NCBI GenBank assembly: GCA_047638715.1
Contig: JBLIMK010000006.1
Coordinates: 2,617-66,616 of the forward strand
Length of the DNA stretch: 64,000 nt
Reading direction: 5' to 3'
DNA from: Verrucomicrobiales bacterium
GTDB lineage: Bacteria > Actinomycetota > Acidimicrobiia > Acidimicrobiales > SHLQ01
Every line of letters starts with the position of its first letter. Positions within the stretch are counted from its first letter, which is position 1. Positions 16,714 through 60,899 of this stretch are shown one piece after another. The notes beneath the pieces were generated by a model, which was not told the origin of the DNA, ran no database searches, and saw only the letters and a program-made list of their open reading frames with translations. Both the position numbers and the translations under genes were made by a program.

Positions 16714-19230
<2,517 letters not shown>

Positions 19231-20070: not shown

Positions 20071-20405
20071 TTTTCGTCTCCGTGGATCGTTACGAAGACT
20101 TCGGTGCCGCGAACTTCGACCTCATGGCCAGCAACAGGCTTCGTCGCTGGAAACGTGAGCGCTGCTCCAGTTTCGAGAGAAAAAAGCGCACCGTGGCGAG
20201 GACACTCGATCGTTCGATCGTCGGGCTCGAGATAGCCGCCAGCGAGCGACACTTGTGCATGGCTACACGTGTCGTCGATCGCGAACCATTCGTCGTCAAT
20301 CCGGGCATACGCGATCGCACGTCCATCGATTTCGGCTACTCGGACATCGCCACTCGTTAACGAATCGACGTCGCACAACTTGACCGTGCTGGGATCGGTG
20401 CTCAT
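20067..20405 (-). CDS. Rieske [2Fe-2S] ferredoxin-like protein
   Basis: CSHAQVSL...CPRHGALF (CxH...CxxH Rieske ligands). 4-nt overlaps with both sufD and sufC. Confidence 0.85.
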   Translation of the reverse strand: MSTDPSTVKLCDVDSLTSGDVRVAEIDGRAIAYARIDDEWFAIDDTCSHAQVSLAGGYLEPDDRTIECPRHGALFSLETGAALTFPATKPVAGHEVEVRGTEVFVTIHGDEK

Positions 20406-21652
20406 GAGGCGACCTCCGATGCGGCTCGATCTGCGGCGAGGGCGTCGTCGATGATGGATTGCATCTCGCTCCTGACAGCCTCGACCGGCAGCAGCGCAAT
20501 TACTTCGGCGAAGAAACCCGAGACGAGCAGCTGTTCGGCAACAACCGTGGGCACGCCTCTGCTCTCGAGGTAGAAGCGCTGATCTTCATCGATCTCGCCG
20601 ACCGTCGAGGCATGACTGCACGACACTTGGTTCTGCTCGATCTCAAGGTTCGGCACCGAGTAGGCCCAGGCACCTTTGGAGAGTTTGAGGTTTCGGTTGG
20701 TCTGGAAGGCATTTGTTCCCGGGGCGCTCTCGGCGACCTTGATCAGCCCGGTGTACACGGACTGGGCGTCACCGGTCACGGCTCCCTTGAAGAGAAGATT
20801 CGAGGTTGTGTCCGGTGCAGCGTGTTCTTGGAAAGTACGAAAGTCGAGCATCTGTGACCCGTCGCCGAAGTAGGCCGACAGCAGATCGCCGCTCGCTCCC
20901 TGGCCAATGAGACGACAGTCGGCACGGGTTCGAGCGTAGGAACCACCAAAAGCCGCAACCGAGGACATGACGTGGGCCTGCTTATCGGCCTGAGCAATGT
21001 GGTGTTCGAGGCATGCAGTATTGGGTCCGAGTTGTTGAATTGTAAGGTATGCGACACGAGCATCCGGCGAAGCAGCGAGCTCGACCGTCGGTACCACGAG
21101 CTGTGATGCATCTGCTGAACGCCGACGTTCCAAGACGGTCACGGCCGCACCGTTGCCGGCGCGAATGATCGTGTGCGGACAGGTCAGCCCGCCCTCGAGA
21201 TCGGAGTACACGTCGATGACGATCGGCGAATCGATATGGGCTCCACGTGGCACGTCGATGACAACCGCATCGGAGATATTCGCATCGTGCAAATGTGCAA
21301 CTGCGTCGATAGGTAGACCACGCACGCTGTTGAGTAGCGCTTCCCCATCGGCGTGCTCGCTGATGGTTTGTACGGTCGCATTGCCCAATGAATCGGCTCG
21401 GTCGATCGAGACGACACGGCCGTCGCGAACGACGACGGTTGCCGCAGCACCGCTTATCTCGAGCGGGTCGATCATCGAACTTGCGAACTCGGGAGCGACG
21501 AACGCGGAGAGGTCGATTTCGGAAATGCGGCTGTAGCGCCAGACTTCGTCGGCATCGGAAGGGGCCTCGGCATCCGCGAAACGCGTGGCGGCCAAGGCTC
21601 GCAACGCGTCGAGCCACGGGGCGAGGGTCAAGGCAGTAGACATGGCCCCCAA
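20402..21652 (-). CDS. sufD: Fe-S cluster assembly protein SufD
   Basis: Length, position and C-terminal beta-helix region (NLLFKGAVTGDAQSVYTGLIKV...AFQTNRNL...IEQNQVSCSHASTVG) are typical of SufD. Confidence 0.85.
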   Translation of the reverse strand: MGAMSTALTLAPWLDALRALAATRFADAEAPSDADEVWRYSRISEIDLSAFVAPEFASSMIDPLEISGAAATVVVRDGRVVSIDRADSLGNATVQTISEHADGEALLNSVRGLPIDAVAHLHDANISDAVVIDVPRGAHIDSPIVIDVYSDLEGGLTCPHTIIRAGNGAAVTVLERRRSADASQLVVPTVELAASPDARVAYLTIQQLGPNTACLEHHIAQADKQAHVMSSVAAFGGSYARTRADCRLIGQGASGDLLSAYFGDGSQMLDFRTFQEHAAPDTTSNLLFKGAVTGDAQSVYTGLIKVAESAPGTNAFQTNRNLKLSKGAWAYSVPNLEIEQNQVSCSHASTVGEIDEDQRFYLESRGVPTVVAEQLLVSGFFAEVIALLPVEAVRSEMQSIIDDALAADRAASEVAS

Positions 21653-22141: not shown

Positions 22142-22852
22142 TCAGGATCCTGAAGACGCGCCGAGCATCACGATTATGGTCCTCGCGAGAAAACGAAGGT
22201 CGCTTCCGAACGTCAACGAGTTCACATATTCGACGTCGAGTTCGAGGCCGTCGCGAAGGTCACCGTTATATCGAAGATCCGACACCTGATAGGGCCCCGT
22301 CATACCGGGCCGTACTTCGTGTCGTACGTGGCGAAGGTAACCCCGCTGTTTCGCTACCCCCACGAGCTCAGGGCGTGGGCCCACAAGGCTCATCTCGCCG
22401 CGCAGCACGTTGATGAGCTGTGGCAACTCGTCAAGGCTGAGCTTTCGGAGAAGGCGACCAAAGCCCGTATGTCGAGGGTCGTTGTCGTCTTTGTGGGTGT
22501 TGCGCCGGTCTGTATCGTCTGGCAATTCGACTTCGGACTGACGGCGATCGGGTCGCATTGTTCTGAACTTGTAGATCGTAAACGGCGCACCACCAACGCC
22601 GATCCTCTGTTGGGAGTACAAGACGCTCTTTCCGAGTCCGAAGCGCACCGCGACCGCAACTCCAAGAAACGCGGGCGATGACAGGAGCAGAAAGAATGAG
22701 CCAAGCACGATGTCGAATGGTCGTTTAAGGCGTCGTTCATACAACGACTGCGCGCGGACGACTCGAAGGTCCTCGGACGGCACAAATATGAGGCCGTCCG
22801 ATGCGCTATCTATCCTGTTTACGTTGTCCAACATCTTCTTCTCACCCGTCAC
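22142..22852 (-). CDS. Small monotopic phosphoglycosyl transferase (bacterial sugar transferase, WbaP/PglC-like)
   Basis: KRPFDIVLGSFFLLLSSPAFL re-entrant helix, FTIYKFRTM, and DELPQLINVLRGEMSLVGPRP. Confidence 0.88.
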   Translation of the reverse strand: MTGEKKMLDNVNRIDSASDGLIFVPSEDLRVVRAQSLYERRLKRPFDIVLGSFFLLLSSPAFLGVAVAVRFGLGKSVLYSQQRIGVGGAPFTIYKFRTMRPDRRQSEVELPDDTDRRNTHKDDNDPRHTGFGRLLRKLSLDELPQLINVLRGEMSLVGPRPELVGVAKQRGYLRHVRHEVRPGMTGPYQVSDLRYNGDLRDGLELDVEYVNSLTFGSDLRFLARTIIVMLGASSGS

Positions 22853-23099: not shown

Positions 23100-24503
23100 T
23101 TAACCGACGGAGCCTTCCATCTGTAGCTCGATCAGGCGGCTCCACTCGACGGCGTATTCCATTGGCAGCGTGCGGGTGATTGGCTCGATGAAGCCGTTCA
23201 CGATCATGCCCATGGCTTGCTCCTCGGAGAGGCCTCGGCTCATCAGGTAAAAGAGCTGTTCGTCGGCAACCTTCGAGACGGTGGCCTCGTGGCCAACGAC
23301 CGCGTCTTGGGAACCAATCTCCATGTAGGGGTAGGTGTCACTGATCGAGTCCTCGTCAAGAATGAGGGCGTCGCATTGCACGTGGCTCTTGCAGCCGTAC
23401 GCGTCTTCATCGATATGGACGAGGCCTCGATAACTTGTGCGACCTCCGTCGGAGCTGATCGACTTGCTGACGATCTTCGATGTGGTTTCGGGTGCAGCGT
23501 GCACCATCTTGGCGCCTGCGTCCTGATGCTGGCCGTTGCCTGCGTAGGCGACAGAAAGGACCTCACCTGATGCCTTTGGCCCGACCATGACAACGGATGG
23601 GTACTTCATGGTGAGGCGGCTGCCGATATTGCCATCGATCCATTCCATGTGACCTTCGGCGTAGACCTTTGCCCGCTTGGTCACCAGGTTGAAGACGTTG
23701 TTCGACCAGTTCTGGATCGTGGTGTAGGTGACGCGTGCACTGTCCTTGACGATGATCTCGACCACAGCCGAGTGCAAGGAGTCGCTCGTGTACACCGGTG
23801 CCGAGCAGCCCTCGATGTAATGCAGTGACGAACCTTCGTCGGCAATGATGAGCGTGCGCTCGAACTGGCCCATGTTCTCCGCGTTGATACGGAAGTACGC
23901 CTGCAGCGGTTGGTCGACATGTACGCCGGGCGGAACATAAATAAAGCTGCCGCCGGACCATACGGCCGAGTTGAGTGAGCTGAACTTATTGTCGTTCGGC
24001 GGGATGATCGTGCCGAAGTATTCCTTGACGAGCTCGGGATGCTCGCGGAGTGCAGTATCCATGTCGCAGAAGATCACACCGAGTTCTTCGAGGTCTTCAC
24101 GGTTGCGGTGGTACACAACTTCGGACTCGTATTGGGCGGTGACACCGGCGAGGTACTTGCGCTCGGCCTCGGGGATACCCAACTTCTCGTAGGTGTCTTT
24201 GATCGCCTGCGGGATGTCGTCCCAGTCGTTGGAGACATTCTCGGTCGGTTTGATGTAATAGAAGATCTCGTCGAAGAAGATCTCGGAGGTGTCGCCGCCC
24301 CAATGTGGCATTGGACGGTTCTCGAAACGGCTAAACGACTTCAGGCGGAAGTCGCGCATCCACGCTGGCTCGCCCTTCATCCACGACATCTCGTTGATGA
24401 TGTCGGTGTTGAGGCCACGCTTCGGCTTATAGATGTAGTCCTCTTCGTCGGACCACCCAAGCTCGTACTTACTGAGATCGACACCGATGTCTGCTGTGCT
24501 CAT
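23100..24503 (-). CDS. sufB: Fe-S cluster assembly protein SufB
   Basis: Highly conserved SufB sequence ([55 protein letters not shown]). Start set at MSTADIG (ATG 24503). Confidence 0.95.
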
Positions 24504-24613
24504 CACGGAGCCTTTCGAGAATTGGATCCTTGTCTCAGAGGCTACCGCCCCTGGTTGTACCCGGGGTGGTCGAGGCTTCGCCACAACACTATTTGTCTAC
24601 TGCTCTTGGTGAG

Positions 24614-25955
24614 ATGTACGGCGGTACACCTCACATTCAGGAGTCGGCGACGCGGCGGATTTCTTGCGTTGCAAAACGCCTCGCCCTATTCGTTGCAGCC
24701 GCCCTTGTCGCGGTCGACCCAACCAATGACACCAGTGCGGTCACACCTACTCCGGTCTGGGCGATCGTCGAAGGCAACGGCCGCTACTACATAGGCGGCA
24801 CATTTCAGACCGTCGGTGGACAACCTCAAGTGGACATGGCGATTGGATCTTCATCGAGCCCAAGTTTCACGATCGACGGGTATGTGGAGGATGCAACAAA
24901 TATGAACGCGGTGCGACGAGAAAAGTTCTTCGCGGTAGACGCTGCCTCGGGAGCTCTGCTTCCCTGGGACCCAGACGGCGACTCGGTCAACGGGGTTTGG
25001 GAGCTCGAGACGGGCCGAGTGGCCTACCGCCGGCGGCGATTTCCACAACATCGCGAACCCCACAGGCGCGGCGGGTGGGGATCGGTCGATCTTCATTCCG
25101 CACGTGGCGATCTTCCCCGGAATAGGGTTCTAGAACGCGGCGCCCGAGTCCCTCTTCTCTGTCGACTGTGCGAGTACATCGTGCAACGTCGATGCGGCCG
25201 CATCGTTCGACGACGAGACGGTGCGAAACCTCAGAACATTCGTGTGGTACAAGGTCTTCTGCTCGGCAGATCCGGGAACAAATGCACTCTTCACACCTTC
25301 AGCAGGCGTGAACGCAGATCTCACCATCTCAACCTTCCATGGTGTGGATTCGGTGGCGCCGATCGACAACTTTGCTGTGGCGTTAGAGACGGTGCAACGT
25401 TTTGGGCATCCAGCTCCGGGCATGGCGATCGGTAGCAACGTGACGATCGTCCATCATTGGACCGACCGATCGTCTGCGACGACGGAGTACTTCGCCCCTC
25501 GAGATCAAATCACTCTTGCGACCTCGATCGGCGCTGGACCGGCACACATAAGCTCGGTAACAACGGTGCGGTCAGCTCCTGAATCGGGCTCGACGACAAA
25601 ATCCGTCGCAATTGCAGAACATGTCGGGCGCGCCGGGACCGGCTGGACAATCGCTTTGAAGCGATCGGCGCCGATGTGCGATGGCCTCGCTGCCACGGTC
25701 GATATCGCCGCTGGACAGGTTCCGACGGCGGGCGACGACGTCATCGACGGGGGCGACGACGCCGACACGATCAGCAGTGGCACAGGGGACGACCATCTGT
25801 TCGGCGGACCGGGTGATGACTTCGTTACTGGATCCACCGGGAACGACACGATCAATTCCACGAATGGTGTGGCCGACATCGTCAACGGTGGCCAGGGCAT
25901 CGATGCCTGCATCGTCGACCTAGGGATCGATACCGCGGTATTTAACTGCGCCTAA
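24614..25955 (+). pseudogene. Disrupted secreted propeller/RTX protein (sixth member of the Cys-capped RTX family)
   Basis: Signal-like N-terminus (RRISCVAKRLALFVAAALVAV). Reading shifts frame near 25028-25036 (…GRVAY | GGDFHNIANP…), then hits an in-frame TAG at 25131-25133. The same frame continues to an RTX tail ending GGQGIDACIVDLGIDTAVFNCA. Confidence 0.6.
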
Positions 25956-25993: not shown

Positions 25994-26851
25994 CTACGCG
26001 AGCGTCTCGGCGATACCTCGTGCGAGCGCCTCGGTAACGTCGATGTCTCCATCGACCGTGCTGCTCCCGGGAACGAGGTTTGCGACGGTGACCAGCAGTC
26101 CCCCTGCGATGATCTGCGCAGTCGACTCGTCGGTTACAAAACCCTTGACGCTGCCATTCTCGAACTGGCGAGCGCTCGGGTCATCGTCGAAACGACCGCT
26201 GATCGTATCGATATAGGTCGGGTCGGCGACATCCCAGCTCACGCCAACGAACCATACGTGGAGATCGCTGAACCACTCGCACGAGTTTGGGCTTCTGGAG
26301 ACCTCATTGAACTCGACCGACGTATCTGAGCCAAGCCCCGAAGGTAGCTGCGCGAACACTCCTGCATCCGCGGACCAACCGCTGATCAATCCACCGAGTT
26401 CGTTCGCTGAGTACAACTCACATGGACTGTCGAGATTGATCGCGGCAAGCTCCTCGTCGAAGTCTGGGGTGCCCGACCCAGGTTCGGGCTGATCACCCTC
26501 GGCGTCAGGGTCGACGTTGGCAGCCTCGACCAGCTGATCTGTAGCGGGTGGTGACCGCGTAACCGCCACAGTTGTTGATGTTGTCCCGATGGTGGTCGTG
26601 GTCGTGGTGTCGCCCTCTTGAACGTTGGACGGTTCGGTCAGCACATCGTCGGACTCGTTCGTCTGGGAGTCGCTCGGGTCAGCGCTCGAATTAGTTTGCC
26701 CGGCGTCATCGACTACCGACCTGGAGTTCGAACCGTCAGCCGCGACCTGTGCGTCGTCGGGTCCATTGTCGCTGCTGCAAGCCGAGGCGAGCAAAGCCCC
26801 TGCGAGCAAGATGGAGGGGGCCAGGTGGCGCCGCCGCTGTCGTTCGGTCAT
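25994..26851 (-). CDS. Hypothetical lipoprotein with T/D/S-rich linker
   Basis: MTERQRRRHLAPSILLAGALLASAC (lipobox), a low-complexity acidic/Thr linker, then a Cys-containing globular domain. Start set at ATG 26851 so that it does not overlap the next gene. Confidence 0.65.
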   Translation of the reverse strand: MTERQRRRHLAPSILLAGALLASACSSDNGPDDAQVAADGSNSRSVVDDAGQTNSSADPSDSQTNESDDVLTEPSNVQEGDTTTTTTIGTTSTTVAVTRSPPATDQLVEAANVDPDAEGDQPEPGSGTPDFDEELAAINLDSPCELYSANELGGLISGWSADAGVFAQLPSGLGSDTSVEFNEVSRSPNSCEWFSDLHVWFVGVSWDVADPTYIDTISGRFDDDPSARQFENGSVKGFVTDESTAQIIAGGLLVTVANLVPGSSTVDGDIDVTEALARGIAETLA

Positions 26852-26931: not shown

Positions 26932-27633
26932 CTAACGTGACGCGAGAAAGATGAAGTTGTTCACGTACTTTGCGGGCGAGGTCAACTTGGATGGATCTTG
27001 CATCTCCGAGCGGAACTCCGACAGGGGGTGCAGGCGACCGTCGAGCATGAAGTAGGCCGAGTACCCGATGTCGCATATTTCGCGAATCTTGCCGTCGATC
27101 TCGCCATCGTGATGGCGAAGTTCTATCTCGACAAGCAACGCAGGCCGGTCTCGTTCGAGCGTGGCTCTAGCTCCTCGCAGCACATCGAGTTCGTGGCCTT
27201 CAACGTCGATCTTGATGTAGCCAATGGGACCGACGTCGAGGTCATCGATACGCTCCAGATCGACCAAGACCGTCCGCTGATTATCAAAGTTATTCGACAG
27301 CGACGCCGCAGCTGCTCGTTCCCCGTCAGGTCCAATCGGTATTGCCAGCTCAGCCTGGCCAACAGCATCGGAGGCAGCGGCCGCTTTCACGACGACGTCG
27401 CCCCCGGGAAATGCACGATTTAATCGAGATGCGAGCGCCGCGTTTGGCTCGAAGGCAACCACACCCTTGGCGTATCGACGCATCCACCACGTGAACTGGC
27501 CGATGTTCGCACCAACGTCGATCGACATGCGCTCAGGATCCGAGAGCAGTTTGGTGAGCCGGATTTCCGGTGTCCCGTCGATCCAATATTTAATGGCGCG
27601 CAACGGCGTGTCCAACGTGGCCGGAAGCTTCAT
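26932..27633 (-). CDS. FkbM-family methyltransferase
   Basis: DVGANIGQFTWWM SAM-binding motif and IKIDVEGHELDVLRGA, characteristic of FkbM-type methyltransferases. Confidence 0.8.
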   Translation of the reverse strand: MKLPATLDTPLRAIKYWIDGTPEIRLTKLLSDPERMSIDVGANIGQFTWWMRRYAKGVVAFEPNAALASRLNRAFPGGDVVVKAAAASDAVGQAELAIPIGPDGERAAAASLSNNFDNQRTVLVDLERIDDLDVGPIGYIKIDVEGHELDVLRGARATLERDRPALLVEIELRHHDGEIDGKIREICDIGYSAYFMLDGRLHPLSEFRSEMQDPSKLTSPAKYVNNFIFLASR

Positions 27634-29120
27634 CGAACCGCTCTTTCGACCGACTGGCCAGCATCATCGGGTTGGCCTGAAACAGCGGCGAACGCCGGCC
27701 GCGTTCGAAGTCCGAGAAGCGCAAACAGCGCGCCCGTAATGACACCGGAGTTCGAGTTGATGATGACCGGGTCGACGAGGCTCATCACACCGAACGCGAG
27801 GAGAATCGGCACCGCTGCTTCCGCGACCGGATCATCGATTGGGCCGGGTCGTCGAGCGCGCCGGAGTGCGACGATAAACGGCACTACCGTTACCAGAGCG
27901 ACTGCCAGCAGCCCTAGGCCCCCGCCTTTCGTGCCATACCAGAGATACACGTTGTGCACCCATCGGCGGAAGAAGGTTGGGTCGCCAAAGGCTTCGATCT
28001 CTAATTCGGGTCGGTACGGGCGACCGAGTCCGGTTCCGAGCGGCTGGGAAACTATAACGTCGATTGCATAGGTATTCTCGCGTTGCCGCCACGACGACCC
28101 AGCGTCCTGCTGGAGTGACTCTGAGGTGAACCCATTAAGTACGCGCTCGGAAAATCCGTCAATCTGTTTTCCTACGACCGAGCTCGAGCCGATTCCTTGG
28201 CCAGCTATGGAGAGCAACGCCAAACCAACGATCGCGGCAAGGATGAACGGAAGCGCTACGGCGACCATATGGGCCGACTGCTTGAAACCTCCGCGTACGA
28301 GCATCCAAGCAATCAATCCGACCGCGAGCCCGACCAACAGCTGACGCGAGAGTGAAAGAACCATAATCGACACGCTCGAGGCTGCGACGAGCCAAAGCAG
28401 AATTCGAGAGGGCTGCAGGTATTTGTTCTTCGTCAGCCACCAGAAGACGACGAGCAACGAGGCAACGGCAAGATCCTCCGAGCTCACAATAAACCTGGTC
28501 GCATCGATCGCTGCCCCAGCGCGGCCGACACCGCCGAAGCCGACAGCATCGCTGACTCGTCCTCCCAGAATCTCAAGGCCCGTTGTTGCCTGAAAGCCGA
28601 TCAGAGCTACCGATACGCCAAGGGTGATCGGTACAAGGTTGAGCACCGAGCGCAGCCCCCCTTGTTGGTAGAGCGCCAAGGCGCACACCACGCCACCAAA
28701 GAACGACAGCGGACCTCGCACGTCCTGGAGCACGGCGGTAAGCGCTCCACCATTCGCCAACCCCCAGATGGCCATCCAGCCCACAATTCCCACATACCCG
28801 GCTAGCAGGCGACGAAAACCTCGAGTGAACGCCGACCAATCAACGACCGGAAGCACGGCAAATATCAAAAGGTGTGGAATGTACACAGACGTGCCCACCA
28901 GTGGGACCACGGGACGAGCTACCGAGAGCTCCGGGATCAACACGAGCAAAAAGAACGCTGATGAAACAACGATCCGTAGGTCGGTACGGCGATGAAGGAG
29001 CACAGCAAATGCGACACAGAGAATCGTGGCTCCGAGCGCGATCTTCGGCTCGAATACGAGGAGCGCGCCAATCGCGATGGCTACGAGCGTCAACGGGATC
29101 ATCGTTCGAATCCTGCTCAC
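27630..29120 (-). CDS. Wzy/O-antigen-ligase-like polytopic membrane protein (putative polymerase)
   Basis: At least 10 hydrophobic segments, a large loop, and HNVYLWYGTKGGGLG resembling the HxxxL...G..G motif of the Wzy_C family. 4-nt overlaps on both sides. Confidence 0.7.
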   Translation of the reverse strand: MSRIRTMIPLTLVAIAIGALLVFEPKIALGATILCVAFAVLLHRRTDLRIVVSSAFFLLVLIPELSVARPVVPLVGTSVYIPHLLIFAVLPVVDWSAFTRGFRRLLAGYVGIVGWMAIWGLANGGALTAVLQDVRGPLSFFGGVVCALALYQQGGLRSVLNLVPITLGVSVALIGFQATTGLEILGGRVSDAVGFGGVGRAGAAIDATRFIVSSEDLAVASLLVVFWWLTKNKYLQPSRILLWLVAASSVSIMVLSLSRQLLVGLAVGLIAWMLVRGGFKQSAHMVAVALPFILAAIVGLALLSIAGQGIGSSSVVGKQIDGFSERVLNGFTSESLQQDAGSSWRQRENTYAIDVIVSQPLGTGLGRPYRPELEIEAFGDPTFFRRWVHNVYLWYGTKGGGLGLLAVALVTVVPFIVALRRARRPGPIDDPVAEAAVPILLAFGVMSLVDPVIINSNSGVITGALFALLGLRTRPAFAAVSGQPDDAGQSVERAVR

Positions 29121-30415
29121 CGGGCAAACACCAACGCTCGGGCGTTCTTCGCATCAGCGCGACGTGGAATGAGTAGGTGGAGCCGCGCCTCGGGACGCGA
29201 GCCGCGATATTTAGACACGACAAGTGCTGCGCTCGTTGTATAGGCGAGCAAAGTCGCAACGCTGGCTCCGATCGCCCCGAACTGCCACCCGAGCAGCAGG
29301 ACCGCAGCTACCGCTACGGCCAATGTCACGATCTGCAGAGACGATTCGGTTCGCGCAAAATCCCCGGTCACAAGAAAGACGCCGAGCACGTCTCGAATGT
29401 AATTTGCCAAGCCGGCGAGCAGCAGTATCTCCGCTGGCCAGAGCGCATCGCCGAAGCTCGGCGGAAAGAGAAGCGACAACGCCAAAGGGATGGTCAAGGC
29501 CAGCAAAACAATCGAAGGAACGAGCAGGACAACACCCAGTCGAAAGTAGTGCTCAACATCGGGTCCATCTGGATCGTTAGACGAGCGAATAGCGAGCTGG
29601 CGGATCGTTCGGGTGAAGAGATCCGCGACCTCGGCGAGAGCAACAGCGACGGCGTAAAGGCCGAGTTCTCCGCTGCCGGCCACCGAGCCGAGGAGAAGCT
29701 GATCAAGGCGACGGTTTCCAAGTCGGGCGGCTTGGCCTGGAGCGAGATCCCACGCGAATCGACGGAAACGTCGTTCAACCGATCGCTCGATCGTCACCCC
29801 ACGAGAAAGCGGCACCGAGGCCGCGACCACCGCCGTGAACCCGACGATCGATCCTGCAACCGAAATCCACGCACCGGTCGCAACCGAGTCGATCGCGAAA
29901 GTCACCATGGCAATAGCGCCGACGAGTCGAACCACGTGCGGTGCAAGAATGTGAGCCACTACCGGGCGCGATCGTTGATCCGCCGTGAGAGCGAACCTCA
30001 AACCATCGGAGATCGCCGCCAGAGGGATGACGAGCAGTAGACCTCGGAAGATCGTGATTGCGTCGCTGTCGAGTCGAAACATCAACGGAGCAGCGATCCA
30101 AGCAACCGCGCTAAACGCCACGCTGCTCGGCCCAATCCAACGTGTCACCGCACGGGTGGTGCCACCAACTCCCATGTCGGTCCAGTGAACAGCGGCCAGC
30201 GCCGCCTCTTGCCCTCCGAGGGTCGACAGGTACCGAAATATGAGGAACGCCGACATCACGGCCGCCAGCGTGCCCCGACCATCTCGACCTAACGCTTCAG
30301 CGAGTAGAGGAGCGGCAGCGAAGGACAGCACGGGCCCCGCCACCGTTGCCATCAGCAACGAGCGCTCGAACTTCTGCGCCCTCACAGCGGGCCGCGTCGG
30401 TGACAAGGAACTCAC
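29117..30415 (-). CDS. Polysaccharide flippase (Wzx, MOP superfamily)
   Basis: About 12 TM segments across 432 aa, with operon position between the acetyltransferase and polymerase genes. Confidence 0.75.
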   Translation of the reverse strand: MSSLSPTRPAVRAQKFERSLLMATVAGPVLSFAAAPLLAEALGRDGRGTLAAVMSAFLIFRYLSTLGGQEAALAAVHWTDMGVGGTTRAVTRWIGPSSVAFSAVAWIAAPLMFRLDSDAITIFRGLLLVIPLAAISDGLRFALTADQRSRPVVAHILAPHVVRLVGAIAMVTFAIDSVATGAWISVAGSIVGFTAVVAASVPLSRGVTIERSVERRFRRFAWDLAPGQAARLGNRRLDQLLLGSVAGSGELGLYAVAVALAEVADLFTRTIRQLAIRSSNDPDGPDVEHYFRLGVVLLVPSIVLLALTIPLALSLLFPPSFGDALWPAEILLLAGLANYIRDVLGVFLVTGDFARTESSLQIVTLAVAVAAVLLLGWQFGAIGASVATLLAYTTSAALVVSKYRGSRPEARLHLLIPRRADAKNARALVFAR

Positions 30416-30987
30416 GTCTCGAGCGAGGCGCGCTCGCGGAAATGGACCCAGTTGTCAGCCGGGTCGAGCTCCTTCACGACTTTCGCAGGTACGCCCGCGA
30501 CGATCGAGTTGCTCGGCACGTCGGCGACAACAACCGCTCCCGCCGCCACGATCACGTTGTCGCCAATCGTCAATCTTCGGAGTCCACGCGCGTTGCTGAT
30601 GATCTTCGCTCCAGCGTTGATCTCGACATAGTCACCGATCGTCACGTTCGGACCGCCGATTCCAACTTGCTGCATCATCGAACAGTGCGACCCGATTCGG
30701 GTACTCGGGTTCACGACGAGACCTCGTGGATGTCCAGCGAAGACACCGGGGCCGACCTCGACCTTCGGTCCAATCCACACGCCGTGAAGAAAATCGTTGA
30801 GGGCGGTTATGCCATACGCGATCGGACGCGTCATGCGATGGCGGAAACAAGCCTGTGACAATCGGAAGAGCACGATCACTTTGAAGTCGGCGTGGTAGAA
30901 GTACTTCGCAATCCCGCGCTCGGAGTGCACGAGCTGGAACATTTCCAGATCGGCGCGGACGTCGTTTGTAAAGCGACTCATCACCAC
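30412..30987 (-). CDS. Serine-acetyltransferase-like hexapeptide-repeat O-acetyltransferase
   Basis: CysE-like N-terminal helical region (ADFKVIVLFRLSQACF) plus left-handed beta-helix repeats (IGPKVEVGPGVFAGHPRGLVVNPSTRIGSHC...IGDYVEINAGAKI). Confidence 0.8.
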   Translation of the reverse strand: MVMSRFTNDVRADLEMFQLVHSERGIAKYFYHADFKVIVLFRLSQACFRHRMTRPIAYGITALNDFLHGVWIGPKVEVGPGVFAGHPRGLVVNPSTRIGSHCSMMQQVGIGGPNVTIGDYVEINAGAKIISNARGLRRLTIGDNVIVAAGAVVVADVPSNSIVAGVPAKVVKELDPADNWVHFRERASLET

Positions 30988-31931
30988 TCCCCATAGAACT
31001 GGTGAAGGTCTGGGCCGATCAGCGCCATGAGCCTGGCCTCGTCGTCGGCGTCGATGGAGGTGCGCCAGTGTTCTGCGACCGCGTGGGAATCTCGCACGAA
31101 CGAGTGAACCTTTAGACGCTCTGGCGCGATCACAGAACCCGATGATGTGTACTCGATATAGTCAGCCATTTCTTGGGTCATACTCAACCCAAAATGCGAA
31201 GAGACCTCATCGATCGTTGCATGGATGTCCGCGGCAAGATCTTCGAAGCGAACCACCATCACAGAGTCAGTCGATGTTCGAGCCACCATCTGCGACATCA
31301 TTCGCCAAAGAACGGCACAGTAGGCAAGTTTGTCCGTCTCGGCAGTGCGCCACGTTTCGTCCTCGATGTCGATTCCGAAATCTCGACGCATAGCCGAGGC
31401 ATTGATGAATCGACCAATCCCGAAGTCCCACGGTTGCATAACGAAGCTCTGGTAATAGGCCGCTGGGTGACGCACGATGCAGATGGATCGAACACCATGG
31501 CGCCGAGCGAGATGTTCGAGCGCGAACGTGGCAAAGGGATCCTTGAAACATTGGACAGGAGCGCGGGGTCGCCCGACGCGCTCGAAGAGCGCGTCGCTTC
31601 GCCAGTCGCGGCTTGTGCGACTACCCACGAGCACCTTTCCGGTTTTCTGTGCCCATGTACGGTTTTGGCCGCGAGACATGGCGAATCGGCGCCAGCCACC
31701 TCGTAGCTCCACCATCTGCGATAGGACCTTCGCCGACTCGATGCTCGCGGGATCGCCGCCCGAAACGTAGGGGAACTGCCCCGATACGGCTCGAAGACCA
31801 AATTCTTCGTTCAGAGGCTCGAGGACCATTCGTACGTCAGGGTGGTGCGCGAGGATATTTCCGACGTAGGTGGTTCCGCTGCGTGGAAGACCCGCGACAA
31901 CGATCCGATCGGTTCGTAGCGCCGAGTCCAT
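30981..31931 (-). CDS. Sulfotransferase family protein (1)
   Basis: 5'-PSB loop VVAGLPRSGTTYVGN and 3'-PB-like CIVRHPAAYYQS. Start set at MDSALRT (31931), which leaves 8 nt to the upstream stop. Confidence 0.75.
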   Translation of the reverse strand: MDSALRTDRIVVAGLPRSGTTYVGNILAHHPDVRMVLEPLNEEFGLRAVSGQFPYVSGGDPASIESAKVLSQMVELRGGWRRFAMSRGQNRTWAQKTGKVLVGSRTSRDWRSDALFERVGRPRAPVQCFKDPFATFALEHLARRHGVRSICIVRHPAAYYQSFVMQPWDFGIGRFINASAMRRDFGIDIEDETWRTAETDKLAYCAVLWRMMSQMVARTSTDSVMVVRFEDLAADIHATIDEVSSHFGLSMTQEMADYIEYTSSGSVIAPERLKVHSFVRDSHAVAEHWRTSIDADDEARLMALIGPDLHQFYGEW

Positions 31932-31939
31932 CTCCGTTC

Positions 31940-32941
31940 TCACTTGTGGGCCACCTGATAACCGAGATCCGCGAGCAGTCCAGAAAATTCGCCGCGCTGG
32001 ACCGACGAGTCGGTTTCGGTTTTCGGTGAGCCGACGATCTTGCACCCGTATTCGACAATCGGGTCAGGGTCGAGCTCGCAAACCTCACACAACGTTTCCA
32101 ACGTTTCGCGCGGCGTGGACAGAAGTTCCTCGAATCGAATAATCAGATCGATCTGTTCTTGTGAGCGAAGAAGATGGGTAGCGCCGAGCACCCATTCCGC
32201 ACGTGCGCGAGCTGCCGGTTCACCGGTACCGGGCCCGACGTCATCGGCAAGGCTCAAGATGTCCGAATCGGAAATCAGTTGCTCAGCCATCTGCACCCAC
32301 TTTCGATCATCGACACCCCACCAGTTGCCTCGACCGTCGGCCATTGCCTCCGAGTAGTTAACAATTGACGAAACCACCGCTACTGGATCGCGAACTATCG
32401 CAATGATCTTCGCATCCGGATAGAGGGCGCGGAGGAAGGGAACGCGGTAGGTCATTTCCGGGTACTTATCGACGATCCGACTCGAACGGGTGAGGGTCGC
32501 GAACCAGTTGTACATCGTGCTAACACGATCACGTACAGCATCTGTCACGTCGGTGGCGTCGAGGACAAATCGGCCTTCGTCGGCATAGAAACCCGAGATG
32601 TCCTCATCGGGAACTCCAACGTGCCACAACGCTTTCGGTTCTTTGAGATATCCAACGCCCTTGCCAGACGCGATGATCCGACCCAGCAGAGTGGTGCCGC
32701 TTCGCCCTATGCCGACGATGAAGATCGGGCGATCCACGTCCTGGCGCGGCCATCGCGACGCAACGAGTCGAAGATGCGATCGGGTCACGGCGTCGAGTTT
32801 GGCGCCCCTCGTCATCGGTGGACGACCCTCGAAGAGTGCTTGGGCGATAAGGCGCGACGGGACCCTCAGGGGAGCGGCTCGAAGGAACTCCCGGTCGATC
32901 TCGGCCAGGAGCATTTCGTTTCGCTTTCCAGAACGTTTCAC
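31940..32941 (-). CDS. Sulfotransferase family protein (2)
   Basis: 5'-PSB loop FIVGIGRSGTTLLGR and 3'-PB motif IAIVRDPVAVVSS. Confidence 0.8.
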   Translation of the reverse strand: MKRSGKRNEMLLAEIDREFLRAAPLRVPSRLIAQALFEGRPPMTRGAKLDAVTRSHLRLVASRWPRQDVDRPIFIVGIGRSGTTLLGRIIASGKGVGYLKEPKALWHVGVPDEDISGFYADEGRFVLDATDVTDAVRDRVSTMYNWFATLTRSSRIVDKYPEMTYRVPFLRALYPDAKIIAIVRDPVAVVSSIVNYSEAMADGRGNWWGVDDRKWVQMAEQLISDSDILSLADDVGPGTGEPAARARAEWVLGATHLLRSQEQIDLIIRFEELLSTPRETLETLCEVCELDPDPIVEYGCKIVGSPKTETDSSVQRGEFSGLLADLGYQVAHK

Positions 32942-34119
32942 CGGCCGTTCGCAGTGTCGATCAGTAGTTGTTCATATTGATCGACGATCGCCTTCAAAGA
33001 GAAGTTGTCGTGCACCCGTTGGATTCCACCAGATCGACGATCTTCGCTGTCCTCCTCGAGTAGGGACAGGCTCTGTTGGACCGCCTTCGAAGGGTCGCTG
33101 AAATAGTGTCCGATATCGCCAGCGGCCTCGCGGTTGAATGGCGTGTCGTACGCCGAGATGACCGCTCCAACGCCCATTGCCTCAATGATGCTCGGGTTGA
33201 TTCCACCCACAGAATGACCGTGGAGATACATCGCTGCGTCGCGAAGGAGTACGCCAAACCCGCGGCGATCGTCAACATGTCCGAGTAGACGCACCCGCGA
33301 GTCCTGTTTGGCCAGCGCTGGCAGTTCACGTTGCACGGGCGAGTCGTAGTTGGCTGCACCGAGCACCACGATCGGCATGTCGAGGTCGGAGGCGATGTGT
33401 GATCGCGTCATCTCGGCGATGTGATTCTCGGGGATCAGGCGTCCGCCCGTAATGATGTACTTGCGATTCTCGAGTCCGAGCGCCTTGAGGTAGGCATCAT
33501 CTTGAGGTATGCGATGGTCCTCGTCGATGAGTTCGGTCCAGCAATAGGGAATCACGACGGAGTCTGCGGAGAACTCGCTTTGATAAATGTCGGCCATTGC
33601 ATTGCAATCCGTTACCAACGTGGTCGCCGCGTGTTTAGAAAACTTGGCGCACTGGTAGAAGATCCGTTTGGCGGTCGAGCCCCACTTGCCCCGAATCCAT
33701 TCTTGACCGTCGACGTTGAGAACCGTTGGTGTGCCTGTCTTCGTGACGACGGAGAGTGCAGGTGAATTTGCGACATTGAAGCTGAGGACGGCGTCGTGTC
33801 GCTTGAACCGCGCGACGATTGCGGCACCGACGCTGTGGGAGAGCGTGTCGAGCTGTTTTGTCGGAATCGAAGGAAGTCCGATTCTCTTAACGCCTTTGAA
33901 CGGTTCGGCACGGCCCAACGAACCTCGCGTATACAGCGTGACTCGATGCCCTCGTTCCACGAGTTCGGGCAACATGACCGTGCAGAAGGTCTCGTATCCG
34001 CTGTAGGTGGACGGGATCGTTCGAATACCGAAGACGCCAATATCTAGTCCTTCTGCCAACGACTCCACCACACCCCTCCGTTCAAGCCGACCGCAACAGT
34101 GCGTGAGCGGATAAGTCAA
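32938..34119 (-). CDS. Glycosyltransferase family 4 (DUF1972-type N-terminus)
   Basis: IGVFGIRTIPSTYSGYETF N-terminal motif and GT1/GT4 C-terminal region HGHSVGGINPSIIEAMGVGAVISAYDTPFNRE. Confidence 0.85.
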   Translation of the reverse strand: MTYPLTHCCGRLERRGVVESLAEGLDIGVFGIRTIPSTYSGYETFCTVMLPELVERGHRVTLYTRGSLGRAEPFKGVKRIGLPSIPTKQLDTLSHSVGAAIVARFKRHDAVLSFNVANSPALSVVTKTGTPTVLNVDGQEWIRGKWGSTAKRIFYQCAKFSKHAATTLVTDCNAMADIYQSEFSADSVVIPYCWTELIDEDHRIPQDDAYLKALGLENRKYIITGGRLIPENHIAEMTRSHIASDLDMPIVVLGAANYDSPVQRELPALAKQDSRVRLLGHVDDRRGFGVLLRDAAMYLHGHSVGGINPSIIEAMGVGAVISAYDTPFNREAAGDIGHYFSDPSKAVQQSLSLLEEDSEDRRSGGIQRVHDNFSLKAIVDQYEQLLIDTANGR

Positions 34120-34209
34120 TTGTACGACTTCGACTCGGCACTTCGAAATAGGTAGCGATGCCTAGAGATCGTTCCGCTGTTGGCCGAGAAGTTGAACCCT
34201 CCGCCCATA

Positions 34210-35256
34210 TCACCCACGCAGTACGATTTTAGGCGACATCAGCGCCAACTTCCACTCCTCGGCTACCTGCGTCCGAGCCGTGGTTGCAGCCTGCTGCACA
34301 GGTATCCCCTGCGTATCGATCACCGCGTCGATTGCCGCTACCCATTCCTCGGTCGACTCGTGCCCGACCTCGATCAAACCGGGCCAGTCGCTGCCGAGGT
34401 ATTCCTCGACGAACTGGGTCCGGATCCCCACGACCGGGGTTCCCACTTCCATTGCTCGTAGAGCCACGCCGCTCTGGTAGTACTTCCGATACGGAATCAA
34501 AACCACGCGGGCATCACCGAGCAGTTTCGTGACATCGGCCTCGTCTACGAATCGGTCGTCGATGTCCCACCCGCCGATCGCCGGCCACCCACGCCCAACA
34601 ATTCGTGTCGTTCGCCCACACGCCCGTAGCTGAGGGCCGAGCTTCGCGAGGAGGTCGAGGTCTCGAGCTGGTTTGAATTGGCCGAAGACAAGTACATCGA
34701 GAGATCGCTCGGTCGGACAGTCCTTCTCTGGGAGTATTGGATGAGGAAGAACATCGAGTTTCCCGAGACCTAAGAGTTCCGCCTCATCCCGAGCAGCATC
34801 GGTGTGGACGAGCCAACTATGCCGGTCGGAAGTTCCGAGATCGAGCGTCCCAATTGCGCGTTTGGAATAGCCGAACTGACGGCGCAGCGGTCGGACGTCA
34901 TGGAGGATCGTCTGCACAGGAGCTCTGGGGCGCAGGAGGCGCCAGAGAAGAGCATCAAAATAGCCAAAGGTTGGCCACACGCTGATTATGCAATCCACAT
35001 CGGTTCGCCGGGCCGCCGAACGAGCACTCCGAATGAATTTCAGCGCCTGGCGAACCCGATCCACATTTCCGGATCCGGCGGGCATTTCAGTCGAGCCCGT
35101 GGCGATATCAACAACGGTGATGCCACCGTTCAGCTGAAGATTGTCGGTCAGTGCTCTCTGGAAGTGAGCGAGCGCGTTCGGGAGCGGATTGACGATTCCT
35201 ACTCGCACGACGTCTCCGCATTCACGGGTGCGGCACGTCGGAGACTTCGCGACCAT
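34210..35256 (-). CDS. Glycosyltransferase (GT-B fold, GT4-like)
   Basis: C-terminal VVLIPYRKYYQSGVALRAMEVGTPVVG resembles the GT1/GT4 nucleotide-sugar binding region. It is the first gene of the minus-strand polysaccharide operon. Confidence 0.7.
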   Translation of the reverse strand: MVAKSPTCRTRECGDVVRVGIVNPLPNALAHFQRALTDNLQLNGGITVVDIATGSTEMPAGSGNVDRVRQALKFIRSARSAARRTDVDCIISVWPTFGYFDALLWRLLRPRAPVQTILHDVRPLRRQFGYSKRAIGTLDLGTSDRHSWLVHTDAARDEAELLGLGKLDVLPHPILPEKDCPTERSLDVLVFGQFKPARDLDLLAKLGPQLRACGRTTRIVGRGWPAIGGWDIDDRFVDEADVTKLLGDARVVLIPYRKYYQSGVALRAMEVGTPVVGIRTQFVEEYLGSDWPGLIEVGHESTEEWVAAIDAVIDTQGIPVQQAATTARTQVAEEWKLALMSPKIVLRG

Positions 35257-35790
35257 TTGGTGGCGAACGTCCAGTTGTCATGCAACAGAGAATTTTCACG
35301 CATACAGAAAAACTTCGATCCGATCCGAGAAGTGGTTCGAACAAAATGGTACGCAGAGTAGTGCCGCCGAAGATATAAGCCCTCTGACTCACCAACAGTA
35401 GGCGCCGTTAGATCAGTCGTCTATTTTTGTGGGATTTGGACCCTAAATCGCCGATTTGACGGCTGCACCCAACGCCGAATTTGATGTCGTTATGGAGAAG
35501 CGACGACCAGAACATTCCGCTGCATGTAGAAGATCTGGTTCGTCGTGCGTTTGTGAGTTCAGCGACGTCTTCACCGATGCCCCCTCACAGGCGTCGATCC
35601 GCTCGTGGGTTCGATCCATCTTTCGACGACGCACCGATCACCCGCTTCCTCGTCTGCCAAGGTTCGAGGACGTCGTGGCCTCGCCGAACGACAGCACGCC
35701 GCTGCCAGTGGACATCGACCTGACGAAGACGCCCGAAGAGCAGTCCCAGGATCTATCTCGTCCCCTCGAAGCCGGCTAAAACGCGGCAAA

Positions 35791-35826
35791 GCCGCCAGTC
35801 AAAGCGTGTAACGCTTGACGAGCGGC
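35791..35826 (-). terminator. Candidate intrinsic terminator downstream of the peroxidase gene
   Basis: Imperfect hairpin GCCGCCAGTCAAAGCG-TGTAA-CGCTTGACGAGCGGC. On the minus strand it is followed by the U-rich TTTGCCGCGTTTTA. Confidence 0.45.
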
Positions 35827-35847
35827 TCTACCTAGAGGGCGGCTTTT

Positions 35848-35871
35848 GCGGGAGGCCCGAGGGCCTCCCGC
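35848..35871. terminator. Perfect GC-rich hairpin (10-bp stem)
   Basis: GCGGGAGGCC-CGAG-GGCCTCCCGC, 32 nt beyond the peroxidase stop codon. There is a T4 run on the plus-strand 5' side only, so directionality is unclear. Confidence 0.4.
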
Positions 35872-35902
35872 AGGAGTCGCAATTACTGCTTCAACTAGCG
35901 GG

Positions 35903-59987: not shown

Positions 59988-60899
59988 ATGGCGACCAACC
60001 CTCCGATCTTCATCGTCGGAGCCGGACGCAGCGGCTCGACGGCGTTTCACCATGCCTTTGCACGCCACCCACACGTCTCCTGGGTATCGAAGATCCTCGA
60101 CGTCATCCCAAAGGGTGAGAAGCTCAACGCCGCACTGCTGAGGGGCCTCGATGCACCGCTGCTCGGCGCTGCACTGTCACGAGGACTCATCGAGCCCGGC
60201 CACCTCAAGCCGAGCGAGGCATACGCCTACTGGGAGCGGATCGCCCCTGGGTTCAGTGAGCCGTTCCGTGATCTCCTCGAGACCGATCTGACCGAGCGCA
60301 CAAAGTCCAACCTGCAGGCGGCGGTCGAGCGCCTGACCATCGATGGCCGCCCAACTCCGCTCATCAAGATCACTGGCTGGCCGAGGATGGGTTACCTCCA
60401 GGCGGCCTTTCCAGATGCGAAGTTCATTCATGTTGTTCGCGACGGACGGGCTGTCGTCAACTCGATCATGCAGATCGACTTCTGGGAAGGTTGGCGCGGC
60501 ACAAAGGGCTGGCGAGGGCTCGACATGACTCCGGATCAACAAGCTCGATGGGATGCGAGCGGCCGGTCGTTCGTGACCCTCGGCGCTATGGAGCTGGCGG
60601 ATATGTTCGACGCACTGGTCGCTGCCACTCCCCTCGTCGCGCCCAATCGGTTCATGGAGATCCGATACGAGGATCTCTGCGACGATCCAACGGGCGTGTT
60701 CTCAACAGTCACAGACTTCTGCGAGCTCGAATACACCGATGGGTTCGACCAATCGGTCATCGGCTTTGGCTTTCGCAACACCAACGACAAGTGGCGCCGC
60801 GATCTGACCGAGCTCCAGCAGCGTCAGCTCGAGACCGAGCTCTCTCCCCACCTCTTGCGGTGGGGTTACGAGCTCGCATTCGGCGCGTCGACGAAATGA
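59988..60899 (+). CDS. Sulfotransferase family protein (3)
   Basis: 5'-PSB loop FIVGAGRSGSTAFHH and 3'-PB motif IHVVRDGRAVVNS. Confidence 0.8.
   Translation: MATNPPIFIVGAGRSGSTAFHHAFARHPHVSWVSKILDVIPKGEKLNAALLRGLDAPLLGAALSRGLIEPGHLKPSEAYAYWERIAPGFSEPFRDLLETDLTERTKSNLQAAVERLTIDGRPTPLIKITGWPRMGYLQAAFPDAKFIHVVRDGRAVVNSIMQIDFWEGWRGTKGWRGLDMTPDQQARWDASGRSFVTLGAMELADMFDALVAATPLVAPNRFMEIRYEDLCDDPTGVFSTVTDFCELEYTDGFDQSVIGFGFRNTNDKWRRDLTELQQRQLETELSPHLLRWGYELAFGASTK

Follow-up and report, generated by a model that had tools for sequence, protein, structure and literature searches.

Positions 26932-35256 of the 64,000-nucleotide window analysed here, from an uncultured Acidimicrobiales bacterium, hold eight co-directional genes on the minus strand that we read, with a probability of roughly 0.7, as a functional Wzx/Wzy-type locus for a sulfated surface or extracellular polysaccharide. 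This cassette encodes two glycosyltransferases (GT1 and GT4), two sulfotransferases (ST2 and ST1), an acetyltransferase (AT), a Wzx-type flippase, a polytopic Wzy_C protein and an FkbM-family methyltransferase (Table 1). The arrangement is not due to chance, as the gene order is kept on independent metagenome contigs and the genes are under purifying selection. The source is a metagenome-assembled genome (MAG) of 3.64 Mb in 169 contigs, 93% complete and with 3.4% contamination. Family calls were made at Pfam curated cut-offs and at NCBIfam/TIGR equivalog cut-offs. From this point on, L-numbers refer to loci or contigs from other genomes or metagenomes, and C-numbers to contigs of the source genome.

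The sulfotransferase pair and its sulfate donor

The eight tightly packed genes, with their coordinates and family assignments, are as the first-pass annotation of this DNA had them: all reading frames are intact, and each has a Pfam match above the curated cut-off. That annotation also credited most of the genes with 4-nt overlaps, which holds for four of the seven junctions (GT4/ST2, AT/Wzx, Wzx/Wzy and Wzy/FkbM); the ST1/AT junction is a 7-nt overlap, and GT1 and GT4 are 90 nt apart. The 106-nt overlap of ST2 and ST1 in the list of open reading frames (ORFs) is most likely an artefact of taking the longest ORF. The true start of ST1 would then be the ATG at 31931, which is preceded by GGAG, lies 8 nt past the ST2 stop and gives a 316-aa protein, the same as in the public gene call. 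For ST2, the public gene call starts at M10 and gives 324 aa.

By hidden Markov model (HMM) scores, conserved residues and modelled fold, ST1 and ST2 classify as sulfotransferases of the type that use 3'-phosphoadenosine 5'-phosphosulfate (PAPS). ST1 scores 59.7 bits against Sulfotransfer_3 and 40.2 bits against Sulfotransfer_1, and ST2 scores 81.3 and 34.8 bits, respectively, where the cut-offs are 27 and 22. The 5'-phosphosulfate-binding (5'-PSB) loops PRSGTT and GRSGTT and the 3'-phosphate-binding (3'-PB) motifs RHP and RDP, on which the first-pass annotation had based its call, are all present, within GLPRSGTT and VRHP in ST1 and within GIGRSGTT and VRDP in ST2.

Conservation was read from two alignments, one of 38 ST2 homologues and the other of 17 ST1 homologues. 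The core of the PSB loop, R-S-G-T, is invariant in both sets; the second Thr of the loop is shared by all ST2 homologues and by the nine closest relatives of ST1. Also without exception are GxGRSGTT, E-P, D-K-Y-P-E, R175 and S183 (324-aa numbering) among the ST2 homologues, and PRSGT, E38-P39, R154, P156 and S162 among those of ST1. In both enzymes, the invariant Glu-Pro lies 21 residues past the PSB-loop Arg. As aligned, its Glu (E38 in ST1, E92 in the 324-aa ST2) is at the position of the catalytic base of the tyrosylprotein sulfotransferases (TPSTs), which in human TPST2 is E99, with the same spacing from R78. The K-D/Y-P motif, the counterpart of the N-K-D-P of TPSTs, is invariant in the ST2 set; in the ST1 set, D-P alone is nearly invariant. 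The 3'-PB Arg is followed at +8 by a Ser (R154/S162 in ST1, R175/S183 in ST2), and both align to the 3'-PB segment of TPSTs.

AlphaFold2 models built on these alignments are confident, with a predicted local distance difference test score (pLDDT) of 89.4 for ST2 and 83.6 for ST1. When the models were compared with the PDB by Foldseek, the top 50 matches of each were all PAPS sulfotransferases (probability >=0.99, template modelling (TM) score up to 0.59-0.61). The nearest folds are 3rnl, the CurM sulfotransferase and Stf1 in the case of ST2, and TPST1/2 in the case of ST1. Membership of a P-loop family other than the sulfotransferases is excluded for both proteins by the HMM and fold searches. 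The only NCBIfam match of ST2 is the model of the carbohydrate sulfotransferase NoeE (2.4e-07, 30 bits against a cut-off of 500).

The two sulfotransferases were described as tandem in the first-pass annotation. They are indeed adjacent but are not duplicates, since a BLASTP alignment of the two is confined to the PSB loop (E 0.07); a tandem duplication is rejected on this motif-level similarity. ST3, the sulfotransferase of a second polysaccharide locus in the window (locus II), shows 27% identity to ST2 and essentially no relationship to ST1. Homology searches place ST1 in a rare and very divergent clade. A word-seeded search of 5.8e9 proteins found 17 homologues, 19 of 1.84e9 representatives are related at E<=1e-30, and the clade is present in 2 of 19 genomes of the same genus. 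Species-representative genomes hold one ST1 relative, at 47% identity, apparently on the same 4.2-kb contig as one of the same-genus matches, and a single-sequence scan of them returned no close relative of ST2. Members of the ST2 subfamily have an N-terminal extension of three helices (~60 residues) ahead of the PSB loop, with an F-E-G-R-P that is invariant in 38 of 38 homologues; acceptor binding and membrane association are possible roles.

Sulfation of this kind depends on a supply of PAPS, for which the first-pass annotation proposed a search of the genome. The genes are there: cysD (474 bits), cysN (612 bits) and cysC (235 bits) all score above their NCBIfam cut-offs, and a missing pathway is rejected. 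The three are contiguous on contig C2 and are joined by a divergent cysQ-like gene beside them, whose best match is CysQ, the phosphatase of 3'-phosphoadenosine 5'-phosphate (PAP), at a score below the cut-off. The compact unit (C2:31617-35308) is on a different contig from the cassette. The genome search found no Sat-type ATP sulfurylase, which is not needed because CysDN replaces it. No CysH-type reductase of PAPS or of adenosine 5'-phosphosulfate (APS) was detected in the 93%-complete MAG, the other PF01507 match being GuaA, and the CysDNC unit may serve mainly sulfation. We do not claim that it serves nothing else, because contig C31 encodes an NIR_SIR protein and the MAG is incomplete to the extent given.

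A conserved core with exchangeable decoration genes

Four independent sets of metagenome contigs (L091, L090, L088/L089 and L004/L005) share the core GT1-GT4-ST2-Wzx-Wzy. The closest relative, the JGI contig L091, encodes proteins 76-91% identical to those of the cassette, in the order GT1-GT4-ST2-ST1-Wzx and with the same coupled junctions; the contig is incomplete and ends inside Wzx. L090 reads GT1-GT4-ST2-ST1-Wzx-Wzy-FkbM-lipoprotein, L088/L089 add a third sulfotransferase and a second methyltransferase to a core of this type, and L004/L005 have GT1-GT4-ST2-Wzx-Wzy-lipoprotein, without ST1 or FkbM. The stretch GT4-ST2-ST1-Wzx has overlapping or near-abutting junctions in L088, L090 and L091. 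GT1 orthologues occupy the same position in L004, L088, L090 and L091 at 46-76% identity, those of GT4 are 72-90% identical, and those of Wzx are 52-91% identical and in synteny. Orthologues of the FkbM protein occur in L088 and L090, with a homologue elsewhere within the L006 locus. More distant homologues of ST2, at 44-57% identity, are encoded in loci with glycosyltransferases and Wzz/bacterial tyrosine kinase (BY-kinase) proteins. For instance, L006 pairs a 57% identical ST2 homologue with a Wzy_C gene, and L007, from the cultured Myceligenerans pegani, has a 44% identical homologue in a locus with a Wzx and a second sulfotransferase.

The signature of purifying selection is a dN/dS of 0.11-0.20 against L091 over GT1, GT4, ST2 and ST1, with GT1 at 0.20 and GT4 at 0.11. 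The corresponding dS values are uneven (ST2 0.28, GT4 0.50, GT1 0.77, ST1 1.04), which suggests mosaic recombination with breakpoints inside the cassette. GC content and GC at third codon positions (GC3) of every gene, AT included, match the 69-kb contig, and a foreign origin judged by composition is rejected. The cassette is modular: around the core GT1-GT4-ST2-Wzx-Wzy, ST1, AT, FkbM and additional sulfotransferases or methyltransferases come and go, in a manner that may be likened to the module swapping of serotype-variable capsule and O-antigen loci.

The acetyltransferase is a strain-specific insertion of a single gene, absent from L091. When the two are aligned, a clean insertion of ~573 bp that corresponds exactly to the AT gene separates the stop of ST1 from the start of Wzx in the window, with overlapping junctions re-created at both ends. 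The composition of AT matches that of its host, and the genome contains no AT paralogue. Its NCBIfam matches are EpsC (8.4e-26, 90.7 bits, cut-off 150) and CysE (9.7e-22, 77.7 bits, cut-off 210.65). Because both matches are below cut-off, and because of its genomic context and its homologues, the preferred reading of AT is a polysaccharide O-acetyltransferase of the CysE-like branch that accompanies sulfotransferases, not an enzyme of cysteine synthesis. Homologues 57-66% identical are found in Gammaproteobacteria and Betaproteobacteria (Methylococcus geothermalis, Noviherbaspirillum and Shewanella). The Methylococcus locus also encodes an APS kinase, Wzx, Wzy_C, methyltransferases, other hexapeptide acetyltransferases, a sulfotransferase and a DUF1972 glycosyltransferase. 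In L095, a 69% identical homologue overlaps the stop of a sulfotransferase gene. The sulfotransferase-acetyltransferase pair looks like a horizontally mobile decoration module. AT homologues at 7001-7582 of L094 and 1117-1686 of L095 stand directly beside sulfotransferase genes in polysaccharide loci.

Table 1. Coordinates within the window, and family matches, of the cassette genes and associated features.
Feature	Position	Strand	Description and matches
GT1	34210..35256	-	First operon gene; GT-B glycosyltransferase; Pfam Glyco_trans_1_4 2.4e-07, above cut-off
GT4	32938..34119	-	GT4 family, DUF1972-like N-terminus; Pfam Glyco_trans_4_4, Glyco_transf_4, DUF1972
ST2	31940..32941	-	Pfam Sulfotransfer_3 1.6e-22 and Sulfotransfer_1
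ST1	30981..31931 (30981-32045 as listed ORF)	-	Pfam Sulfotransfer_3 6.5e-16 and Sulfotransfer_1
AT	30412..30987	-	CysE/EpsC-like left-handed beta-helix O-acetyltransferase (predicted); Hexapep 1.4e-09
Wzx-type flippase (MOP)	29117..30415	-	Polysacc_synt 3.7e-08 and Polysacc_synt_3, above cut-off
Wzy_C polytopic membrane protein	27630..29120	-	Pfam Wzy_C 4.4e-09, above cut-off
FkbM-family methyltransferase, dependent on S-adenosylmethionine (SAM)	26932..27633	-	Methyltransf_21 9.4e-18; TIGR01444 6.9e-26, above cut-off
Lipoprotein-like secreted protein	25994..26851	-	Trailing cassette gene; LLAGALLASAC lipobox, Thr/Ser/Asp-rich linker
Upstream non-coding region, presumed promoter	35257..35902	-	Strong GC hairpin ~35845-35875 at end of upstream peroxidase-RTX gene
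Monotopic phosphoglycosyl transferase (PGT)	22142..22852	-	Pfam Bac_transf 4.3e-57; TIGR03025 1.9e-65
GDP-mannose 4,6-dehydratase (Gmd)	16714..17688	-	TIGR01472 3.6e-134, above cut-off; Pfam GDP_Man_Dehyd

A predicted pathway and its competitors

The predicted topologies are those of a set of soluble enzymes followed by two polytopic membrane proteins. No transmembrane segments are seen in the glycosyltransferases, the sulfotransferases or the methyltransferase, and the single hydrophobic window of AT falls inside its beta-helix repeats and was not taken as transmembrane. Wzx has ~10 hydrophobic segments and scores 33.6 bits against Polysacc_synt (cut-off 28.2). The Wzy_C protein, at 36.7 bits against a cut-off of 31.7, has ~11 such segments with a hydrophilic loop of ~100 aa between residues 303 and 401; a sequence search of the PDB gave no relative. 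From its family match it is presumed to be the repeat-unit polymerase.

A clue to the sugars comes from GT4, whose NCBIfam match to Cps2T (7e-36, below cut-off) indicates a family-level relative of the Cps2T/WchF rhamnosyltransferase. Among its nucleotide-sugar genes, the genome has RmlB and RmlD above cut-off (dTDP-rhamnose precursors), Gmd (GDP-4-keto-6-deoxymannose) and a CDP-4-keto-6-deoxyglucose route. Given this kinship and these routes, a 6-deoxyhexose is plausible as the decorated residue, and the Gmd of the window could possibly supply its precursor to the cassette.

We propose the following pathway. A PGT encoded outside the operon would prime a polyprenyl-phosphate carrier at the cytoplasmic face of the membrane, the nearest candidate being the one listed in Table 1. 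GT4, possibly adding the 6-deoxyhexose, and GT1 would then extend the unit to roughly a trisaccharide, as two glycosyltransferases and a primer imply. On this lipid-linked glycan, the soluble and unrelated ST2 and then ST1 would each sulfate a different hydroxyl, drawing on PAPS from CysD-CysN-CysC, with the CysQ-like enzyme removing the by-product PAP. AT would add an O-acetyl group and the FkbM enzyme an O-methyl group. Because PAPS is cytoplasmic, decoration should precede flipping, and Wzx would move a unit that is already decorated. Outside the membrane, the Wzy_C protein would polymerise the units to a chain length set by a Wzz/BY-kinase protein encoded elsewhere, to give a sulfated and strongly anionic polysaccharide at the cell surface or outside the cell.

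Several points weigh against this reading. The source is an uncultured MAG. A primer, a polysaccharide co-polymerase (PCP/Wzz) and an attachment enzyme were not found in the operon. No Wzz/BY-kinase co-polymerase was found in the window, with four to five Wzz-domain frames lying on contigs C57, C5, C74 and C17. The genome has five PGT genes, among which the primer of the cassette is unassigned; the choice of the nearest is tentative because of the four others. Wzy_C also comprises O-antigen ligases and O-oligosaccharyltransferases (O-OTases), and no sequence result separates polymerase from ligase. The sugar and acceptor specificities are guesses, since none of the matches to Cps2T, EpsC/CysE and NoeE comes near its cut-off. 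Finally, among solved proteins, those closest to ST1 are protein tyrosine, not carbohydrate, sulfotransferases.

The ambiguity of Wzy_C gives rise to the strongest competing explanation, itself unlikely: a sulfated oligosaccharide is made and not polymerised, and the Wzy_C protein acts as a ligase or O-OTase that transfers it to a protein or cell-wall acceptor. Candidate acceptors would be the co-conserved Thr/Ser-rich lipoprotein (25994-26851) and the neighbouring RTX exoproteins. The O-antigen ligase family PF04932 spans WaaL as well as O-OTases of the PglL/PilO/WsaB type, and the window has no PCP/Wzz gene. The last conserved gene of the cassette encodes a secreted lipoprotein whose Thr/Ser-rich linker precedes a C-terminal domain also found fused to RTX-like repeats, and the cassette has RTX proteins as neighbours, as do its counterparts in L004, L088 and L090. 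Nevertheless, the standard layout of a polymerase system is a Wzx and a Wzy_C-type protein encoded together in an operon, and the ST2-bearing loci L006 and L007 carry Wzz/BY-kinase co-polymerases, which are sensible only with polymerisation. The Wzz-domain proteins encoded elsewhere in the genome could act in trans, and there is no sign of a glycosylation sequon or acceptor. A specific form of this explanation, in which a doubly sulfated, acetylated and methylated oligosaccharide is put by a Wzy_C O-OTase on the co-encoded lipoprotein or on Ca-binding RTX exoenzymes, appears more improbable still. If true, it would put sulfated glycans on proteins of a monoderm bacterium and create, together with the RTX island, a Ca2+-bridged anionic matrix.

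The structural kinship of ST1 raises the question of whether one or both sulfotransferases act off the glycan, on tyrosines of secreted proteins (as RaxST and TPSTs do), on a lipid or on a small molecule, with their position in the operon being incidental. ST1 shares with TPST1/2 (PDB 5wri, 3ap1), its nearest solved sequences and structures, the PSB loop, the position of the catalytic Glu (present in ST2 as well), the K-D-P motif and the 3'-PB Arg and Ser, and secreted RTX proteins are encoded nearby. TPST1/2, however, are Golgi membrane enzymes that act on peptides, whereas the context of ST1 and ST2 is wholly one of glycan biosynthesis. Identity to the TPSTs is only 17-20%, with a TM score of ~0.5-0.6, and that these are the nearest solved kin mostly reflects the near-absence of solved bacterial polysaccharide sulfotransferases of this family. 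On four independent contigs, sulfotransferase genes sit between GT4 and Wzx-type flippase genes with overlapping or near-abutting junctions; homologues of ST2, out to Myceligenerans, are always in polysaccharide loci; and the pairing with an acetyltransferase is repeated in polysaccharide loci of other phyla. This context argues strongly for a glycan as the acceptor and makes an off-glycan role very improbable. Least probable of all is that the cassette yields no product, being an accessory island that is silent or decaying or else a mis-binned fragment: the fragmented and slightly contaminated MAG, the patchiness of the ST1 clade among same-genus genomes and the mosaic of dS from 0.28 to 1.04 would allow for it, but the frames are all intact, the junctions are coupled, dN/dS is low, and GC and GC3 fit a contig that holds suf, aroA and glpX genes typed as Acidimicrobiales.

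Known systems and the genomic neighbourhood

The polysaccharide reading places the cassette among sulfotransferase-bearing clusters that have already been published (PMC8205485, PMC11641403, PMC11766843, PMC13390465). The hallmark of a sulfated-polysaccharide cluster is the presence of sulfotransferase genes in the locus together with a supply of PAPS (PMC11641403). The cassette shows this combination, with its sulfotransferases among glycosyltransferase and export genes and with cysDNC in the genome, outside the locus.

In gene content, the cassette resembles the xss cluster for synechan in Synechocystis sp. PCC 6803, which is also of the Wzx/Wzy type, has two sulfotransferases of distinct subfamilies and, as proposed for the cassette, modifies its glycan in the cytoplasm before flipping (PMC8205485). 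Synechan is chemically sulfated, and its sulfate and glycosyltransferase counts match the gene counts (PMC8205485). The cluster differs from the cassette in belonging to a cyanobacterial diderm that needs an outer-membrane polysaccharide export (OPX) protein, and in having eight glycosyltransferases versus two. It also contains its own PCP and the XssQRS regulators, none of which are seen in the cassette, and its gene list includes no acetyl- or methyltransferase (PMC8205485). The two were compared by gene content.

Within the Actinomycetota, wps-1 of Actinoplanes missouriensis likewise combines two sulfotransferases of different families, a SAM methyltransferase and Wzx/Wzy (PMC13390465). The cluster has a role in sporangium formation; its sulfated exopolysaccharide is predicted and not proven, and the Actinomycetota as a whole still lack a sulfated polysaccharide with chemical proof (PMC13390465). 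Again by gene content, wps-1 differs in also having Wzz, a GH26 hydrolase and a kinase-like protein, features closer to a locus on contig C17 of the source genome than to the cassette, and its host is a filamentous soil actinomycete.

Sulfotransferases in the locus, with cysDNC as the PAPS source, are also found in Vibrio sp. KMM 8419 (PMC11641403) and Cobetia marina KMM 1449 (PMC11766843), whose sulfated polysaccharides have been chemically determined. Two of the cited papers called bacterial sulfated polysaccharides exclusive to cyanobacteria, which is contradicted by these structures (PMC11641403, PMC11766843). The Vibrio capsular polysaccharide (CPS) contains sulfated, O-acylated L-rhamnose (PMC11641403), a parallel to the decorated 6-deoxyhexose suspected here. 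It differs in its ABC (Kps) export instead of Wzx/Wzy, and in having the PAPS genes inside the locus, which here are on another contig. Vibrio and Cobetia are Gram-negative, unlike the source bacterium.

The same trio of sulfate, methyl and acetyl groups on a 6-deoxyhexose is known from the Nod-factor fucose of Sinorhizobium fredii NGR234, where the enzymes are the sulfotransferase NoeE, the methyltransferase NoeI, which is of the FkbM family, and the acetyltransferase NolL. That system differs in that its product is a lipo-chitooligosaccharide signal and not a polymer, and in that NolL is a membrane acyltransferase rather than a hexapeptide enzyme.

The first-pass annotation had presented sulfated bacterial surface polysaccharides as uncommon and this set of decorations as chemically unusual. 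Both statements are too strong. Of the 151 genomes sampled across the order, 99 carry Sulfotransfer_3 genes, in many cases with 5-18 matches each. The source genome itself has about seven sulfotransferase genes (eight Sulfotransfer_3 matches, of which two share a frame) spread over at least three polysaccharide loci, and there are the published clusters. As to the decorations, wps-1 (methyl), the Vibrio CPS (O-acyl) and the Methylococcus locus are precedents. The cassette is a further example of a cluster type known in cyanobacteria, marine proteobacteria and Actinoplanes, a real locus for a sulfated glycan that is probably functional.

Sulfated glycans play a central part in the turnover of carbon and sulfur in the sea and are of value to biotechnology, and the bacteria that make them are poorly mapped. 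Together with the Sulfotransfer_3 count for the order, the cassette suggests that the Acidimicrobiales, which are widespread and mostly uncultured, are a neglected source of sulfated polymers, and that decorations such as an extra sulfotransferase, acetyl or methyl groups are swapped as single-gene modules. The finding changes no concept. In practical terms, it supplies enzymology with two divergent sulfotransferases that are candidates for acting on polysaccharides, ST1 being from a very small clade, and the cultured Myceligenerans strains offer a tractable test bed: M. indicum, M. pegani and M. crystallogenes each have an ST2 homologue, at 44-47% identity.

The 69-kb contig on which the window lies also carries the housekeeping genes suf, aroA and glpX, typed as Acidimicrobiales. 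The SufB protein encoded in the window shares 94% identity with its counterpart in an uncultured Acidimicrobiales MAG, and its best relatives are all Acidimicrobiales/Acidimicrobiia. Upstream of the cassette is an island of RTX-tailed exoproteins (peroxidase, reprolysin, GSDH and FG-GAP/ASPIC), and beyond it is locus II, with ST3 (59988-60899), a Wzx, a Wzy_C protein, glycosyltransferases and a hexapeptide protein. Downstream are the lipoprotein gene, a split suf system and gmd. The PGT gene is wedged between sufB (23100-24584) and sufD (20402-21652), 4 kb downstream of the cassette. A PGT gene near sufB is present in only 1 of 80 related SufB loci, that of the closest relative, L008 (57% identity).

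In the ~640 bp upstream of the cassette, an Rfam scan gave no family and the leader RNA folded no better than its shuffles (z -0.12); a riboswitch or other regulatory RNA is rejected on these results. Scans of the locus for sigma-70 consensus sequences and terminators returned background-level counts only.

The lipoprotein has orthologues after FkbM in L090 (55%) and after Wzy in L004 (30%), and it has no Pfam or NCBIfam match. Its C-terminal domain of ~180 aa, with the motifs EPGSGTPD...C...CEWFSD...WFVGVS, is also fused to RTX-like GGxGxD repeats in the paralogue C30:29782-31065, and appears to be an uncharacterised extracellular domain common to the cassette and RTX proteins. On the plus strand, two overlapping ORFs at 24530-25955 converge on the end of the cassette. 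The first (24530-25435) has no Pfam match and the second (25221-25955) has RTX nonapeptide repeats; the pair may represent a single small RTX gene that is frameshifted or whose start is mis-called. The locus at ~9713-16663 of C17 encodes a sulfotransferase, an APH-like kinase, a GT2 glycosyltransferase, a 527-aa fusion of Glyco_tran_28_C with a sulfotransferase, which is an unusual combination, and Wzz with a BY-kinase, followed by two secreted proteins without Pfam matches.

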